Below the pieces are notes generated by a model. It saw only the letters and a program-made list of their open reading frames with translations. It was not told the origin of the DNA and made no database searches. A stretch of 38,179 nucleotides of DNA from a virus. Taxonomy: Duplodnaviria > Heunggongvirae > Uroviricota > Caudoviricetes. Below, piece after piece: positions 17,013-21,703 of this stretch (position 1 is its first letter; each line of letters opens with the position of its first letter). The stretch lies in the IMG/VR virus record IMGVR_UViG_2585427736_000016. One strand, 5' to 3'. The position numbers and the translations under genes are program-made.

Positions 17013-17216
17013 ATGTACCGTATGGACAAAATCAGAGAATGGTTCAGTTACAGCTTCGGAGGACTGACTGCGATGGGTGGCATTCTCTCCCTGAATGACT
17101 GGGCTGTCATCATTGGTATTCTTTGTACTGTCGGCACATTTGGCATCAACTGGTACTACAAGCGCAAAGAGCGCGAGGACAGATTGAATGGCAATGTCAC
17201 CGGCACTACGAAATAG
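17013..17216 (+). CDS. class II holin, dual-start (probable pinholin / antiholin pair), 67 aa
   Basis: Two in-frame starts, MYRMDK (ATG 17013 and ATG 17022); two TM helices; SD AAGGGG lies in hairpin CCCCT-caatga-AGGGG (16991-17006); followed by a SAR endolysin. Confidence 0.75.
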
Positions 17217-17691
17217 CGTAATAGCGGCGATAAGTGGCGGGGCTATTGCTATAGCATCTGTGTTAATCACTGGCCCGAGTGGTAACGATGGTCTGGAAGG
17301 TGTCAGCTACATACCATATAAAGATATCGTTGGTGTATGGACTGTATGTCACGGACACACCGGAAAAGACATCATGCTCGGTAAAACGTATACCGAAGCA
17401 GAATGCAAAGCCCTCCTGAATAAAGACCTTTCCACGGTCGCCAGACAAATTAACCCGTACATCAAAGTCGATATACCGGAAACAACGCGCGGCGCTCTTT
17501 ATTCGTTCGTCTATAACGTGGGCGCAGGCAATTTCAGAACATCGACGCTTCTTCGCAAAATCAACCAGGGCGATATCAAGGGCGCATGTGACCAGCTACG
17601 TCGCTGGACATACGCTGGCGGTAAGCAATGGAAAGGGCTGATGACTCGCCGTGAGATTGAGCGTGAAGTCTGTTTGTGGGGGCAACAATGA
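17188..17691 (+). CDS. SAR endolysin (T4-lysozyme-type muramidase with N-terminal signal-anchor-release domain), 167 aa
   Basis: Gly/Ala-rich weakly hydrophobic N-terminal segment ([19 protein letters not shown]) then a lysozyme core; resembles the phage 21 endolysin as recalled. Confidence 0.85.
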
Positions 17692-18125
17692 GCAGAGTAA
17701 CCGCGATTATCTCCGCTCTGGTTATCTGCATCATCGTCTGCCTGTCATGGGCTGTTAATCATTACCGTGATAACGCCATCGCCTACAAAGAACAGCGAGA
17801 TAAAGCCACATCCACAATCGCTGATATGCAGAAGCGTCAACGTGACGTAGCAGAACTCGACGCCAGATATACAAAGGAGCTTGCTGATGCTAACGCGACT
17901 ATCGAAAGTCTCCGTGCTGATGTTTCTGCTGGTCGTAAGCGCCTGCAAGTCGCCGCCACCTGTGCAAAGTCAACGACCGGAGCCAGCAGCATGGGCGATG
18001 GAGAAAGCCCAGGACTTACAGCAGATGCTGAACTCAATTATTACCGTCTCCGAAGTGGAATCGACAGGATAACCGCGCAGGTTAACTACCTGCAGGAATA
18101 CATCAGGACGCAATGCCTTCGATGA
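17688..18125 (+). CDS. Rz: Rz i-spanin, 145 aa
   Basis: [31 protein letters not shown]... matches the lambda Rz N-terminus as recalled; ATGA overlap with the endolysin. Confidence 0.85.
17887..18072 (+). CDS. Rz1: Rz1 o-spanin lipoprotein embedded in the +1 frame of Rz, 61 aa
   Basis: Signal peptide with lipobox LVVSAC then proline-rich segment ([16 protein letters not shown]), entirely inside Rz. Confidence 0.7.
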
Positions 18126-18300
18126 TAGCGATAATTTTACTCATCATCCTTCACATCTGGCTCTGTAGACAGGGTGGTGATCACTTCTGGAGTGAATCCA
18201 GATTAAACATCTCATTGCTGATGCTTGATATTGAGCATCTGGCGCGCGGTAAGGGGCTGCGTTGAGATAAGAGCCAGTCATCACAAACACCAGGATTTAG

Positions 18301-18322
18301 CCTCGCATTCGCGGGGTTTTTT
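18301..18322 (+). terminator. candidate rho-independent terminator after the lysis cassette
   Basis: CCUCGC-auuc-GCGGGG (one G-U pair) then TTTTTTATT. Confidence 0.5.
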
Positions 18323-18346
18323 ATTCCCAACTCCATAGGTAATTTT

Positions 18347-18826
18347 ATGACCCAGCATATTGGCGTAAAACTGATTAACGCCTTTCCGATGACGAGACAG
18401 GCATATAACGATTTTCGTGGCTGGCAGCTTCCTGCCGGAGAAAACGGCGAGGACGAAGGCTATCTGGTTGAATATCTGGATGGCGGAAAACCTAACACCG
18501 ATCGCTTTGATGGCTACGTTAGCTGGAGTCCAAAAGAAGTATTCGAAAAGGCTTATCGTCCGGTATCAGGACTAAGTTTCGGCCTTGCCATGGAAGCGTT
18601 AAAACAGGGCAAAAGTTTGCAGCGGGCAGGATGGAATGGGAAAGACCAGTTTGTTTATCTCGTGAAAGGGGAAAAATTAGCGTCTGCGTTGGGTTATGGT
18701 TTTGGCGAATATGTTGGCGAGCCAACTTTCAATGACACGCTTGTATTGAAAAACTCACAGAACCGCCTTGCTACATGGGTTCCATCCATTGGTGACATGA
18801 TGGCTGAAGACTGGCAAATCATTTAA
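18347..18826 (+). CDS. two-domain accessory protein, 159 aa; C-terminal half possibly DUF2829/Tad2-like
   Basis: C-terminal ...AMEALKQGKSLQRAGWNGKDQFVYL...WVPSIGDMMAEDWQII fits my recollection of the DUF2829 signature (A-L-K-x-G-K...R-x-G-W-N-G); N-terminal 70 aa unassigned. Confidence 0.55.
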   Translation: MTQHIGVKLINAFPMTRQAYNDFRGWQLPAGENGEDEGYLVEYLDGGKPNTDRFDGYVSWSPKEVFEKAYRPVSGLSFGLAMEALKQGKSLQRAGWNGKDQFVYLVKGEKLASALGYGFGEYVGEPTFNDTLVLKNSQNRLATWVPSIGDMMAEDWQII

Positions 18827-18836
18827 CCATGTAGGC

Positions 18837-18871
18837 ATTACAAAGCCCATCTACGGGTGGGCTTGATAATG
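18837..18871 (+). repeat. stem-loop repeat unit 1 (ATTACAAAGCC...GGGCTTGATAATG)
   Basis: Begins 11 nt after the stop of the 18347 gene; hairpin AAGCCCA-tctacggg-TGGGCTT then GATAATG; near-copy after the next gene. Confidence 0.5.
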
Positions 18872-19062
18872 AAACCGGAGTTAATTTCTGGTCACTAATT
18901 AACGGCAGTACAGCGAAACAACCCAAGCCAGTAAGTGGGGAAATAACACTGGCAGCCACTGAAAGATGAACCTCCTGCCTTATGGCAAAAAAAAGATTCT
19001 TTGTGGTGGCGGACTGATGGAAAGACATCCTAATCAAGCAACCACTCCACAGGGTCATAATT

Positions 19063-19443
19063 ATGAACGACCAGCAAATCGAAAAAGAAATCGTTGAGAA
19101 AGGCAAAACCGCTCCGAGAATCACTCCGCAGCACATCGAAGACGTGATTAAAAGCGAGCATTACTTTGCTGCTTATGATGGACGTAATGGTGCCATTTCC
19201 AGCAACGAATATTGTGGCAGGGAAAAACCAGAAGAAGGCGATCGTGATTTATCACCATTGAAGTTGCTCACTTTCTGCGTACTGGTGCTGAAGAATGGCT
19301 TCACCGTCACCGGAGAGAGTGCCTGTGCAAGCCCGGAAAACTTTGATGCAGAAATTGGTCGGAAGATTGCCCGGCAAAATGCTGTAAACAAAATCTGGAT
19401 GCTCGAAGGTTACTTGCTGAAGCAGAAGCTAAGCGAACAGTAG
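19063..19443 (+). CDS. Gp49-like / Sf6 gp66-like conserved phage protein, 126 aa
   Basis: Position just upstream of terS and sequence (...HYFAAYDGRNGA...LLTFCVLVLKNGFTVTGESACASPENFDAEIGRKIARQNAVNKIW) fit the Gp49-family protein of P22-like phages as recalled. Confidence 0.55.
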   Translation: MNDQQIEKEIVEKGKTAPRITPQHIEDVIKSEHYFAAYDGRNGAISSNEYCGREKPEEGDRDLSPLKLLTFCVLVLKNGFTVTGESACASPENFDAEIGRKIARQNAVNKIWMLEGYLLKQKLSEQ

Positions 19444-19445
19444 TT

Positions 19446-19485
19446 ATTACAAAAGCCATTCCCTACTGAGTGGCTTTGATAATGG
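19446..19485 (+). repeat. stem-loop repeat unit 2 (ATTACAAAAGCC...TGGCTTTGATAATGG)
   Basis: Begins 3 nt after the stop of the 19063 gene; hairpin AAAGCCA-ttccctactgag-TGGCTTT then GATAATGG; a further hairpin GGGATA-N10-TATCCC at 19501-19522. Confidence 0.5.
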
Positions 19486-19546
19486 CTTATACCCTACACG
19501 GGATAACTTAACTGATATCCCTTTTAACGGATAAACGGAGCCAACA

Positions 19547-19789
19547 ATGGCAGAGATTATTCCCATGACTGAAGAACAGAAATTCCAGTTAGAGATTTAC
19601 AAACTGGTCATGAACCAGAACGCAGCCGCAGAGGAAGCATTTCAATTCATTGGCACTGACGAGCTGAAGCTTGAGCTATTCAAAATTCACTTCCAGTCAG
19701 GTGGCGCTAATTCAGATATCACGACCCGCACAATCGAAGCGGTACGTAAATCGAAGGAAGCGTTAGACCTGTTTACTACCGGAGCATAA
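19547..19789 (+). CDS. hypothetical small protein, 80 aa
   Basis: ORF with AACGGAG upstream; helical, acidic. Confidence 0.5.
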   Translation: MAEIIPMTEEQKFQLEIYKLVMNQNAAAEEAFQFIGTDELKLELFKIHFQSGGANSDITTRTIEAVRKSKEALDLFTTGA

Positions 19790-19868: not shown

Positions 19869-20294
19869 ATGGCGACTGAGAAAAAGAAAGGTGGTCGCCC
19901 CTCTGATTATATGCCGGAGGTGGCTAATGACATTTGCGCATTGCTTTCCTCCGGCGAGAGTCTGCGCAAAGTTTGCGAACGCCCAGGAATGCCGAGCAAA
20001 ACATCAGTTTTTCGCTGGCTGGCTGAACATCAGGAGTTTCGTGACCAGTACGCGAAGGCAACAGAGACTCGGGCCGACTCTATTTTCGAAGAGATATTCG
20101 AAATTGCTGACGACGTAATCCCTGATGCCGCCGAGGTGGCAAAGGCAAGACTTCGCGTTGATACCCGCAAATGGGCGCTGGCCCGAATGAATCCCCGTAA
20201 GTATGGCGACAAGGTAACTAATGAGCTTGTCGGCAAAGACGGCGGCGCAATCCAGATTGAAACATCACCGATGAGCACTCTATTCGGAAAATGA
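19869..20294 (+). CDS. terminase small subunit (Sf6 gp1-type), 141 aa
   Basis: MATEKKKGGRPSDYMPEVANDICALLSSGESLRKVCERPGMP...RLRVDTRKWALARMNPRKYGDKVTNELVGKDGGAIQ matches the Sf6-type TerS as recalled. Confidence 0.85.
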   Translation: MATEKKKGGRPSDYMPEVANDICALLSSGESLRKVCERPGMPSKTSVFRWLAEHQEFRDQYAKATETRADSIFEEIFEIADDVIPDAAEVAKARLRVDTRKWALARMNPRKYGDKVTNELVGKDGGAIQIETSPMSTLFGK

Positions 20295-21703
20295 CCTCGA
20301 TTAATCCTATCTTTGAACCGTTCATTGAGGCGCATCGCTACAAAGTCGCCAAAGGCGGTCGAGGTAGCGGTAAGTCATGGGCAATTGCGAGGCTGCTTGT
20401 TGAAGCGGCGCGTCGGCAGCCAGTGCGTATTCTCTGCGCTCGTGAACTGCAAAACAGTATCAGCGATTCGGTAATCCGGTTGCTTGAAGACACCATCGAG
20501 CGTGAAGGGTATTCGGCTGAGTTTGAAATTCAGCGTTCAATGATCCGTCATCTCGGAACGAATGCTGAATTCATGTTCTACGGCATCAAAAACAACCCGA
20601 CGAAGATTAAATCGCTCGAAGGCATTGATATCTGCTGGGTGGAAGAAGCGGAAGCGGTAACGAAGGAATCATGGGACATCCTGATACCAACCATCCGTAA
20701 GCCGTTCTCTGAAATATGGGTGAGCTTTAACCCGAAGAACATACTCGACGATACCTATCAGCGATTCGTTGTAAATCCTCCCGATGATATTTGTCTGCTG
20801 ACGGTGAACTACACCGACAATCCGCATTTTCCTGAAGTTCTCCGTCTGGAGATGGAAGAGTGTAAACGCAGAAATCCGACACTGTATCGTCACATCTGGC
20901 TGGGTGAGCCAGTGAGCGCAAGTGATATGGCAATCATCAAACGTGAATGGCTTGAAGCTGCTACCGATGCGCACAAGAAACTCGGATGGAAAGCGAAAGG
21001 CGCGGTTGTTTCTGCTCATGACCCATCAGATACAGGGCCAGATGCTAAAGGTTATGCATCGCGTCACGGTTCGGTAGTTAAGCGCATTGCCGAAGGTCTG
21101 CTGATGGACATCAACGAGGGTGCTGACTGGGCTACTTCGCTGGTGATTGAAGACGGCGCTGACCACTACCTGTGGGATGGTGATGGTGTTGGTGCAGGTC
21201 TACGCAGACAGACAGCGGAAGCGTTCTCCGGTAAGAAAATCACCGCCACGATGTTCAAGGGCAGCGAATCGCCATTTGATGAAGATGCGCCTTATCAGGC
21301 CGGAGCATGGGCTGATGAAGTCGTACAGGGCGACAACGTTCGCACTATTGGTGATGTGTTCCGCAATAAGCGAGCGCAATTCTATTACGCGCTGGCTGAC
21401 AGGCTTTATCTGACATATCGGGCGGTTGTCCACGGTGAGTATGCAGACCCCGACGACATGCTGAGTTTCGACAAAGAAGCAATAGGCGAGAAGATGCTGG
21501 AGAAGCTGTTTGCAGAACTGACGCAGATTCAGCGCAAATTCAATAATAACGGGAAGCTGGAGCTTATGACTAAGGTCGAAATGAAGCAGAAGCTCGGTAT
21601 TCCATCTCCTAACCTGGCTGATGCGCTGATGATGTGTATGCATTGCCCGGCATTGGTCCGCGAAGAAACAGAAATATACGTTCCCTCATCCTCCGGTTGG
21701 TAA
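20291..21703 (+). CDS. terminase large subunit (ATPase plus RNaseH-like nuclease), 470 aa
   Basis: Walker A VAKGGRGSGKSWAIA, Walker B ICWVEEAE, C-terminal nuclease domain; ATGA overlap with terS. Confidence 0.95.
   Translation: MTSINPIFEPFIEAHRYKVAKGGRGSGKSWAIARLLVEAARRQPVRILCARELQNSISDSVIRLLEDTIEREGYSAEFEIQRSMIRHLGTNAEFMFYGIKNNPTKIKSLEGIDICWVEEAEAVTKESWDILIPTIRKPFSEIWVSFNPKNILDDTYQRFVVNPPDDICLLTVNYTDNPHFPEVLRLEMEECKRRNPTLYRHIWLGEPVSASDMAIIKREWLEAATDAHKKLGWKAKGAVVSAHDPSDTGPDAKGYASRHGSVVKRIAEGLLMDINEGADWATSLVIEDGADHYLWDGDGVGAGLRRQTAEAFSGKKITATMFKGSESPFDEDAPYQAGAWADEVVQGDNVRTIGDVFRNKRAQFYYALADRLYLTYRAVVHGEYADPDDMLSFDKEAIGEKMLEKLFAELTQIQRKFNNNGKLELMTKVEMKQKLGIPSPNLADALMMCMHCPALVREETEIYVPSSSGW

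Follow-up and report, generated by a model that had tools for sequence, protein, structure and literature searches.

Why should two consecutive accessory genes of a P22-like phage each end in a copy of the same short stem-loop, and what would that stem-loop do? The question arose from an earlier note on this DNA, which described two repeated elements with a 7-bp stem, placed right after the stop codons of both genes, and suggested several late-transcript functions. In our analysis the element is an evolutionarily maintained stem-loop at the ends of two anti-defence-type genes in a P22-like phage. The window referred to below is the whole stretch of phage DNA analysed, 38,179 nucleotides in length. 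The features of the locus, all on the plus strand, are as follows.

18299-18326, plus strand: canonical intrinsic terminator from the terminator scan, 3' of Rz and a 50-aa gene
18347-18826, plus strand: accessory gene 1, Tad2-like (DUF2829; Pfam PF11195, E 2.9e-22); its cassette ends at hairpin copy 1
18836-18871, plus strand: hairpin copy 1, type A, CAUUA-CA-AAGCCCAUC-UACG-GGUGGGCUU-GA-UAAUG
18872-19062, plus strand: non-coding spacer, beginning AAACCGGAG..., which in sequence comparisons is always 3' of type A hairpins
19063-19443, plus strand: accessory gene 2, N4 gp49 / Sf6 gene 66 family (PF13876, E 1e-34); its cassette ends at hairpin copy 2
19442-19487, plus strand: hairpin copy 2, type B, with an 8-bp outer stem, a CA/GA internal loop and the inner stem AAAGCCAUUC/GAGUGGCUUU
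19488-19546, plus strand: conserved 57-nt hkbM leader, including a GGGATA/TATCCC stem at 19500-19521 (z -3.4)
19547-19789, plus strand: hkbM / P22 orf80 homologue (DUF2560; PF10834, E 1.1e-43)

Two copies of one fold

The pattern ATTACAAA-N18-30-GATAATG has two matches in the 38-kb window (18837-18871 and 19446-19484), against an expected count of 0.00 from 100 dinucleotide shuffles of the window. Direct inspection of the sequence found both elements exactly where the earlier note had placed them. The two copies share one two-tier RNA fold. Its outer stem, AUUA/UAAU, has 5-8 bp, and a 2x2 internal loop (CA/GA) separates this from a 9-10 bp inner stem, in which 4-6 pairs are G-C. The stem thus exceeds the 7 bp first described and gains an outer tier, which places the elements at 18836-18871 and 19442-19487. 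Copy 1 has a calculated RNA fold energy of -20.6 kcal/mol (z -3.7) and copy 2 of -20.4 kcal/mol (z -4.9), and in each case none of 200 shuffles was as stable. A covariance model run over the 38-kb window matched these two copies only, at 18832-18876 (54.7 bits) and 19441-19489 (66.9 bits).

Placement right after a stop codon holds for copy 1, the 5' edge of which is 9 nt 3' of the TAA of the Tad2-like gene, but not for copy 2, which overlaps the TAG stop (19441-19443) of the gp49-family gene. Similarly, the copies had been called near-identical, which is true of the arms: ATTACA...GATAATG and the unpaired CA/GA internal loop are common to both. It is not true of the inner stems, where two positions differ and each difference is compensated (G-C/A-U and C-G/G-C). 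The supposed third partial copy, CCCTACACGGG, escaped the covariance model even when filters were off and the threshold was E<=10, and it is an 11-nt likeness to a loop and nothing more. The GGGATA-N10-TATCCC hairpin reported next to it is real, and belongs to the hkbM leader. This leader is identical in 64 of 91; changes elsewhere are wobbles or lie in the loop, with no compensatory pair, and the GGGATA hairpin is absent from two relatives (L009 and L091).

Pairing is maintained on the transcribed strand

The earlier note had proposed a search for covariation across P22-like genomes; alignments of the element show conserved pairing and compensatory changes. In an alignment of 13 hand-picked variants, 96% of the stem was paired, both sides had changed in 9 of 17 pairs and none of 500 shuffles was as good; when the partner was slid by 1-3 columns, pairing fell to 32-50%. 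For the 51 distinct copies from 84 loci, 94% was paired with both sides changed in 11 of 17 pairs, and again none of 500 shuffles was as good. One stem position, for example, shows A-U, G.U and G-C: GAGACCA and GAGGCCA occur with TGGTCTC, and P22 has GAGGCCA with TGGCCTC.

The two strands are not equivalent. RNA fold energies average -19.1 kcal/mol on the plus strand and -13.7 kcal/mol on the minus strand, a difference of 5.4, and the plus strand fold is the better one in 48 of 52 variants. Wobble cells in the inner stem are G.U in 104 cases and A.C in one. The outer stem does not share this asymmetry (29 G.U versus 25 A.C cells), which counts against an RNA reading, and a DNA hairpin is also favoured on the plus strand by G.T wobbles, though more weakly (-8.0 versus -6.7 kcal/mol). 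The unpaired CA/GA bases are invariant while the stems vary, which argues for recognition of a folded single strand and not of a duplex palindrome. Given the double changes in 11 of 17 pairs and the 104 G.U against one A.C, the pairing is selected on the transcribed strand.

These results bear on a DNA-level explanation, in which the element is a "linker", a short patch of homology for the exchange of accessory modules with no RNA function. This explanation corresponds to the Susskind-Botstein linker or "boundary sequence" idea. Mosaic joints at both edges of the element fit it, as do the "boundary sequences" annotated elsewhere in Sf6 (bsq7), and the T4-type PeSL motifs are a precedent for small shuffling repeats (PMC2839356). 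However, homology requires identity and not a fold, and the stems drift while pairing is kept, the wobbles are nearly all of the sense-strand type and two unpaired positions are invariant. In addition, the copies within one genome have diverged, which lowers their homology. A purely DNA-level linker is considered unlikely.

The same invariant unpaired nucleotides within a covarying helix would suit an RNA operator, in which the CA/GA loop and AUUA/UAAU stem are bound by a phage or host protein, such as the DUF2560 protein hkbM, to control translation or decay of a neighbour. In P22-like phages the hairpin is also about 60 nt 5' of hkbM in nearly all of the 84 loci. But the hairpin occurs in mEp043, CobraSix and ECP1 with no DUF2560/hkbM gene annotated downstream, hkbM has no recognizable RNA-binding relative among solved structures (best E 0.14) and the ribosome-binding site of the following gene lies outside the hairpin. 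An operator of this kind is improbable.

Distribution among lambdoid phages

The element was found one or two times per genome in P22, Sf6, HK620, HK97, HK022, mEp and Stx phages, with whole-genome counts of one in P22 and two in HK022. Its place in the loci examined is between the lysis cassette and terminase, on the strand of the late operon. The type A hairpin is present in 146 phage records. The type B query matched 78 phage records, 47 of them at just 80-90% identity, including P22, the hairpin of which is type C. BLAST similarity in mEp043, mEp213 and others is confined to window positions 18836-18871, and in distant phages it is frequently reduced to the 36-nt hairpin. A pattern scan of IMG/VR gave 34 true hairpins and 46 chance matches, which separate cleanly by inner stem (at least 7 bp versus at most 3 bp), and added few new stem variants. 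A scan of genome contigs gave only seven loci, four of which were in MAGs of implausible taxa. RNase III maps have been published for E. coli K-12, in which the two cryptic prophages searched, DLP12 and Qin, lack the element.

Rfam 15 gave no match at the gathering threshold anywhere in the window, and at E<=10 the region 18250-19600 gave two sub-threshold chance matches, neither on a hairpin. The hairpin is not annotated in the full records of Huey, Sf6, HK620, epsilon34, P22, HK022, mEpX1 and others, and literature searches by gene name, motif sequence and topic found no description of it. The earlier note had missed that the element is a lambdoid-phage family which coincides with mosaic joints of the accessory region.

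Accessory cassettes and mosaic joints

In "empty-site" relatives the hairpin directly follows the terminator; for example, the L032 and L073 contexts read ...GGGGCTTTTTATTGCCATTACAAAAGCC..., so the cassette slot has its left edge at the 18299-18326 terminator. Megablast alignments to relatives are interrupted at window positions 18836 and 18299. At least 12 genes with no relation to each other end at the hairpin or close to it, among them Tad2-like, Acb2/Tad1, gp49, Rha and GIY-YIG genes. Upstream of the hairpin 13 ORF families were found, with a terminator between in some and with one or two short ORFs doubtful, and in five or six upstream gene families the stop codon is 2-3 nt 5' of ATTAC. 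On the other side, the conserved gene is hkbM, which lies just 5' of the small terminase gene (19869). The core types of the hairpin follow the downstream sequence more than the upstream gene, so the hairpin may serve either the preceding gene or the following message. Mini-ORFs starting at the conserved AUG of the 3' arm (MKPELISGH and MAYTLHGIT, each followed by a stop) were rejected as chance, since they are not kept in short-leader relatives or in P22, which has a different ORF ("orf25") annotated.

A GC-rich stem-loop directly past stop codons could also be a non-canonical terminator or attenuator within the late operon, and intra-operon terminators with no assigned role have been noted in P22-like phages (PMC8022706). 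Here the judgment that these are not classic terminators was borne out. The U-tract (at least five U in 8 nt) is lacking and GAUAAUG stands in its place, the 3' tail pairs back as the outer stem, and the terminator scan that detected the true terminator at 18299-18326 made no call at either hairpin. Termination would also be redundant in the empty-site relatives, where a canonical terminator lies immediately 5', and essential head genes are downstream. This explanation is very unlikely. A minus-strand terminator was rejected, since a T-rich tail exists in types A and B only and the minus strand pairs worse.

The spacer between the two cassettes suggests one more explanation. Its conserved part extends to about 19027, and in HK620, HK022 and P22 a type C hairpin follows that part directly; the remainder in the window is 5' leader sequence of the gp49-family gene. 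Similarity of the spacer to the N-terminus of ST64T orf118 is noted in the epsilon34 record, and an A-run of eight A in the window versus six in P22 and HK022 breaks a small ORF. By these sequence features the spacer is probably a gene remnant. Alternatively, hairpins A and C would flank a spacer of about 150-190 nt that is cut from the late transcript as a stable non-coding RNA ("P22G"). Its conservation in P22, HK022, HK620 and the window and a small-RNA-seq locus covering it in P22 point that way. However, the 3' hairpin of the spacer is replaced by a gene in the window, P22 lacks the 5' hairpin and P22G begins inside rha. The spacer fold is marginal (z -2.2) and resembles a gene remnant, and many phages carry the hairpin with no spacer. 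Release of a small RNA appears most improbable.

A proposed boundary in the late mRNA

The reading we prefer, with a probability of about 0.5, is that the element is a cis-acting hairpin of the late mRNA which sets a boundary of processing or stability, and that its conservation also supplies homology for cassette exchange. The earlier note had listed several functions in the late transcript and chosen none; a late-transcript role is now the best lead, through the covariation and strand asymmetry. RNA polymerase antiterminated by Q/gp23 would read the lysis genes, pass the terminator at 18299-18326 and continue across the accessory genes to hkbM and the terminase genes. The element would fold (about -20 kcal/mol) at or next to the stop codon of an accessory gene and act in cis as a boundary between mRNA segments. 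It may do so as a barrier against 3'-to-5' exonucleases, or its internal loop may be cut by a double-strand-specific nuclease such as RNase III. In either case, the stretch of transcript with the lysis and accessory genes would have a stability and expression separate from those of the morphogenesis stretch.

As a second role, the hairpin may be a homology patch for phage or host recombination. It is the only conserved 36-45 nt between unrelated cassettes, which would make it such a patch, and mosaic joints cluster at both of its edges. The two copies share a fold and differ in stem sequence, so direct-repeat identity between them is cut to 8 + 7 nt. This reduced identity should guard the intervening gene against deletion.

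One experimental result touches the proposed mRNA boundary. In P22 the small-RNA locus "P22G" spans the upstream spacer and ends at the 5' arm of the hairpin (PMC13397905). Its 3' boundary lies at the loop of the P22 hairpin, and the P22 reference sequence is correct there. This is a weak hint of an mRNA boundary, and it may be an artefact of 101-nt single-end reads. The length of the helix may count against an RNase III site: the hairpin has 16-20 stacked positions (5-8 bp, the 2x2 loop and 9-10 bp), and RNase III accommodates about 22 bp (PMC6212723), or about two helical turns of coaxial duplex, which often has an internal loop. Separately, a general mRNA stabilizer might be expected elsewhere in the genome too, and the confinement of the element to one region counts against that function.

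Comparison with known systems

In T4-type phages, PeSL (promoter-early stem-loop) cassettes carry a strong sigma-70 promoter and an effective terminator, with many per genome (PMC2839356, PMC4122927). Like the PeSL, the element is a small repeated stem-loop motif between non-essential, fast-changing ORFs in a hyperplastic region and coincides with joints of insertion, deletion or replacement in related phages. Unlike them, it lacks a promoter and a U-tract, is limited to one locus with one or two copies per genome, keeps a conserved internal loop and belongs to temperate lambdoid phages. The promoter scan found no promoter-like site at either copy, and the 22-26 nt between ATTACA and GATAAT exceed the spacing of a -35/-10 pair. 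The lambdoid boundary-sequence concept reportedly comes from the HK620 and Sf6 genome papers. Boundary sequences (bsq in the Sf6 record) are likewise short, conserved and at junctions of mosaic modules, but they are defined by identity alone, whereas the element is defined by a covarying fold; nor do the Sf6, HK620, epsilon34, P22 or mEpX1 records annotate it at these positions.

In the T7 early R1.1-type RNase III sites and the lambda sib retroregulator, the hairpin that remains after processing determines how stable the upstream message is. These too are sense-strand intercistronic hairpins in long phage transcripts, built of upper and lower stems around an internal loop, but the helix of the element has 16-20 positions versus approximately 22 bp and there is no sequence similarity. 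REP/BIME elements, which are extragenic palindromes of enterobacteria, are chromosomal, exist in hundreds of copies, occur together with RAYT transposases and differ in consensus. They and the coat-gene stem-loop of P22, HK97 and lambda (NC_002371, 6102-6119) resemble the element as stable hairpins past an intra-operon stop codon, and are thought to shield upstream mRNA from 3' exonucleases. The GTAG 5' of both window copies comes from TAG stop codons and the family does not conserve it; there the 5' flanks of the hairpin vary (TAGCC, TGACC, TAACC, AGTTC, CGGTT and others). REP/BIME membership was dropped for this reason and for the count of only one or two copies per genome.

Integron attC sites close the 3' end of a cassette with an imperfect hairpin, in which the outer arms are conserved, a spacer is unpaired and the top varies, and the element likewise ends cassettes of unrelated genes. 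It could accordingly be imagined as a site of single-stranded DNA at which a recombinase or structure-specific nuclease acts on the folded hairpin to move cassettes, and GIY-YIG and HNH nuclease genes are sometimes found in the same slot. However, the RYYYAAC/GTTRRRY cores are absent (the arms are ATTACA...GATAATG), and an integron-type integrase is not annotated in the whole P22 and HK022 records. The evidence points to a fold at the RNA level, the core type co-segregates with the downstream neighbour and not with its own cassette, no dedicated recombinase gene is linked to the element and each genome has one locus. An attC-like site is extremely unlikely. A broader version takes the hairpin as the mark of a cassette system for anti-defence genes in the lysis-to-terminase hot spot of lambdoid phages, where it would label cassette ends and actively direct their capture or exchange via phage single-strand annealing proteins or a structure-specific nuclease that acts on the folded strand; this version is quite doubtful.

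Mimicry of a CRISPR repeat (an RNA anti-CRISPR) was considered and dropped, as the similarity was not significant. Against host type I-E and I-F repeats, the best local matches had 5-14 aligned positions and copy 1 was beaten or equalled by 197 of 500 shuffles. The sole marginal match, GGATAAAC (17 of 500), is in the hkbM leader and not in the hairpin.

Significance

Few phages have been studied as well as P22, HK97, HK022, Sf6, HK620 and the Stx phages, and this covarying hairpin is still unannotated in every record examined in full. It lies in the region where lambdoid phages keep swappable counter-defence genes (Tad2-like and gp49-family here, Acb2/Tad1 in a relative). The 36-45-nt motif and its covariance model provide a cheap marker that delimits accessory cassettes and nominates anti-defence candidates, for example the ORFs of 62, 85 and 95 aa that adjoin the motif. 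If the hairpin were the signature of a cassette system, it would be a temperate-phage counterpart of integron attC or of the T4 PeSL mini-circles, and a hairpin search would be a direct route to new counter-defence genes. If it guides recombination, it would give a testable handle on lambdoid mosaicism at a hot spot. If it is an mRNA boundary, it would explain how accessory genes can be expressed from the late operon while expression of the head genes is left undisturbed.

Gene order of the late region

The window covers the late region of a P22-like (Lederbergvirus) phage, and sequence searches identified Escherichia phages Huey, IME10 and HZ41 as its nearest relatives, followed by Sf6 and HK620. 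The features surrounding the hairpins are as follows:

17188-17691, + strand, endolysin
17676-18125, + strand, Rz
18113-18265, + strand, hydrophobic 50-aa ORF, Sf6 gene 65 homologue, overlapping the end of Rz and preceding the terminator
18299-18326, + strand, canonical intrinsic terminator
18347-18826, + strand, Tad2-like/DUF2829 gene (PF11195)
18836-18871, + strand, hairpin copy 1
18872-19062, + strand, non-coding spacer, 190 nt
19063-19443, + strand, N4 gp49 / Sf6 gene 66 family gene (PF13876)
19442-19487, + strand, hairpin copy 2
between hairpin copy 2 and hkbM, + strand, hkbM leader, 57 nt
19547-19789, + strand, hkbM/DUF2560
19869-20294, + strand, small terminase gene
20291-21703, + strand, large terminase gene

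The 50-aa ORF is kept in many relatives and had no match in Pfam.

The two hairpins

Both sequences quoted in the earlier note were found where it had placed them, and the stem-loops exist, with spans (18836-18871 and 19442-19487) that differ from those it reported. The pattern ATTACAAA-N18-30-GATAATG occurs twice in the window, against 0.00 occurrences expected from shuffles. RNA folding predicts the same two-tier hairpin for both copies, in which a 5-8 bp outer stem, (C)AUUA/UAAU(G), is separated from an inner stem of 9-10 bp by a symmetric 2x2 internal loop (5'-CA / 5'-GA). The fold energies are -20.6 kcal/mol (z -3.7) for copy 1 and -20.4 kcal/mol (z -4.9) for copy 2. The description of the copies as near-identical holds only in part, as the inner stems (AAGCCCA/UGGGCUU versus AAAGCCA/UGGCUUU) differ at two positions, both compensated, and only 8 + 7 arm bases are identical. 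Likewise, placement immediately after the stop codons is approximate: copy 1 begins 9 nt past the TAA, and copy 2 overlaps the TAG of its gene. The family's covariance model did not recognise the supposed third partial copy, even with E<=10 and filters off, and that sequence is regarded as a chance 11-mer. The GGGATA/TATCCC stem is real, at 19500-19521, and belongs to the almost invariant hkbM leader; in the leaders of relatives it changes only in the loop or by wobble, and it is missing in two of them.

The conserved AUG of the 3' arm starts a 9-codon mini-ORF after each copy (MKPELISGH* at 18868-18897 and MAYTLHGIT* at 19481-19510). Their equal length is curious, and they are lost in relatives with short leaders.

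A hairpin family with covarying stems

The sample comprised 80 IMG/VR loci fetched via the downstream hkbM gene, plus several GenBank phages. A hairpin was present about 60 nt 5' of hkbM in nearly all loci sampled, with a second hairpin 200-650 nt further 5' in most, so the element is a family rather than a local repeat. At least six stem types were seen among these loci:

Inner-stem sequences of the hairpin types
Type A: AAGCCCAUC.../...GGUGGGCUU
Type B: AAAGCCAUUC/GAGUGGCUUU
Type C: GAGACCAUUC/GAGUGGUCUC, with outer stem AUUG/CAAU
Type D: GGAGCUCUUC/GAGGGGCUUC
Type E: GCAGCCCUUC/GAGGGGCUGC
Type F (Citrobacter): AAGCGUCUC/GGGGCGCUU

Covariation in relatives, which the earlier note had proposed as a check, was found. 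In a plain MAFFT alignment of 13 hand-picked variants, 9 of 17 pairs were doubly changed with 96% paired, none of 500 shuffles equalled this, and pairing collapsed once the partner was slid. Among 51 distinct sequences found by the covariance model, 94% were paired and both sides had changed in 11 of 17 pairs (0/500 shuffles equal), in an alignment that was fitted to the model and thus leans towards structure. A-U, G.U and G-C were all seen at one stem position. The outer stem's AU core, the unpaired CA and GA bases, and AAUG in the 3' arm are invariant.

Folding favours the + strand, the late operon's sense strand, by 5.4 kcal/mol on average over its complement; this strand is the stabler one in 48 of 52 variants. 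The inner stem contains 104 G.U cells versus 1 A.C cell; although single cells cannot be counted as independent events, they point unambiguously one way, to pairing kept on the transcribed strand. This asymmetry and the invariant mismatched loop disfavour both a protein site in duplex DNA and a simple homology patch. A fold selected on the sense strand is considered probable (about 0.8).

Distribution

Within the 38-kb window the covariance model detected only the two copies. Across whole genomes it gave one copy in P22 (40307-40352, beneath 'orf25', a doubtful ORF) and two in HK022 (39677-39721 and 39872-39917). Type A was present in 146 phage records; with copy 2 (type B) as the query there were 78 matching records, of which 47 reached only 80-90% identity. 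Among the records are Lederbergvirus, Hendrixvirinae (HK97, HK022, mEpX1, ECP1), Aguilavirus mEp043, Cobrasixvirus and Stx phages of several genera. In all loci with gene context examined, the hairpin lies 3' of the lysis cassette and 5' of terminase in sense orientation. DLP12 and Qin, two cryptic prophages of K-12, lack it. An IMG/VR scan for CCATTACA-N24-32-GATAATGG returned 34 true hairpins (inner stem >=7 bp) and 46 chance matches (stem <=3 bp).

P22 'orf25' (NC_002371 40329-40406) has its ATG within the loop of the hairpin and continues through the 3' arm; because of the covarying fold there, it is likely a spurious ORF call. Four loci 99-100% identical to the window's hkbM (L087-L090) sit on short contigs in MAGs that are labelled Cellvibrionaceae, Bacillota and Collinsella; these contigs almost certainly come from E. 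coli phages and were mis-binned or are contaminants.

Accessory genes and mosaic joints

Thirteen unrelated ORF families occur directly 5' of a hairpin, and in 5-6 of the 13 a stop codon (TAG, TGA or TAA) lies 2-3 nt before ATTAC, abutting the outer stem. Genes upstream of a hairpin include Tad2-like, Acb2/Tad1, gp49-family, Rha, GIY-YIG/T5orf172, DUF551, a trypsin-like peptidase and several unknowns. For example, an Acb2/Tad1 sponge gene (PF24729) occupies the same slot of a relative (L018:3423-3704), and the Huey record labels homologues of both window genes (18347-18826 and 19063-19443) 'anti-CRISPR protein'. KilA-N genes occur in the same slot one gene further 5', before an hkbL-like ORF that abuts the hairpin. 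The slot is a counter-defence and accessory hot spot, and the genes that the hairpins bound are cassettes of counter-defence type.

Megablast pieces of relatives start at 18836 in the window, where copy 1 has its first base, and at the terminator (18299). Phages such as mEp043 and mEp213 resemble the query only over the hairpin (window 18836-18871). Relatives with an 'empty site' have the hairpin and hkbM leader directly behind the terminator that follows Rz; in the window, the Tad2-like gene has been placed between terminator and hairpin. Hairpin type tends to track the downstream sequence, type A with the AAACCGGAG spacer and types B and C with the hkbM leader; L030, L064, L091 and the Stx phages are exceptions, and several further 3' contexts occur in the wider set.

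In P22, a segment inserted within 40353-40480 parts orf80/hkbM from the hairpin and from the first part of the hkbM leader, and is a third insertion slot, just 3' of the hairpin. It begins with a G10 run and a terminator well formed on the reverse strand, and judged by eye it appears to encode a reverse-strand gene; the P22 record has no such gene annotated there.

The spacer and the P22G small RNA

The first ~155 nt of the spacer (to about 19027) are conserved in P22 (NC_002371 40181-40306), HK022 and HK620, and correspond to the small-RNA-seq locus 'P22G' (PMC13397905). P22G was reported (PMC13397905) as a 204-nt species spanning the spacer, with its end at the 5' arm of the hairpin in P22; given the 101-nt reads, this boundary may be technical. 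The epsilon34 record describes the homologous stretch as a remnant of the ST64T orf118 N-terminus. A 43-aa ORF at 18966-19097 is probably not real, since the A-run length in the spacer varies (8 versus 6). A sub-threshold Rfam match to Proteo-phage-1 RNA (RF03044) at 18922-18957 (E 4.6; 16.8 bits, where the gathering score is 42) is probably chance.

Identity and proposed function

The earlier note's statement that the hairpins are not classic terminators agrees with the negative result of the terminator scan. A promoter scan rejected promoter identity, and a REP element, an attC site (by core sequence) and a CRISPR-repeat mimic were also rejected. No Rfam family was matched, and the Huey, Sf6, HK620, epsilon34, P22, HK022 and mEpX1 records carry no annotation of the hairpin; the Sf6 record annotates 'boundary sequences' at other places. 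The motif sequence was not found in any phage paper of the literature searched, and the 28 papers containing one 11-mer concerned unrelated subjects. The hairpin is real and conserved; it is a structured element without earlier annotation, of the intercistronic hairpin or module-boundary kind.

From the fold, the sense-strand selection, the fixed place in the late operon and the position at stop codons, we infer a cis-acting RNA element that would mark a boundary within the long late transcript. The hairpin may block 3' exonucleases, a role also proposed for REP elements and the coat-gene stem-loop. Alternatively, cleavage could occur at the internal loop, as in RNase III sites of the T7 R1.1 type, and a protective 3' hairpin would then stay on the upstream message; the helix is somewhat short for RNase III (PMC6212723 as yardstick). 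A role in recombination is suggested as well, because the 36-45 nt patch is the sole homology between unrelated cassettes and the joints fall exactly at its edges. It would then serve as a homology patch for cassette exchange, and having so few arm bases identical between copies (8 + 7) would limit loss of the gene between them. T4-type PeSLs, regulatory stem-loop motifs that mediate modular shuffling, are a documented precedent (PMC2839356, PMC4122927). Combined processing or stability and homology-patch functions are given roughly even odds, with the remaining probability divided among a pure DNA linker, a protein operator, an odd terminator, sRNA release and an attC-like site. Textbook phages carry the hairpin, and it lies within an anti-defence hot spot; its putative function is directly testable.
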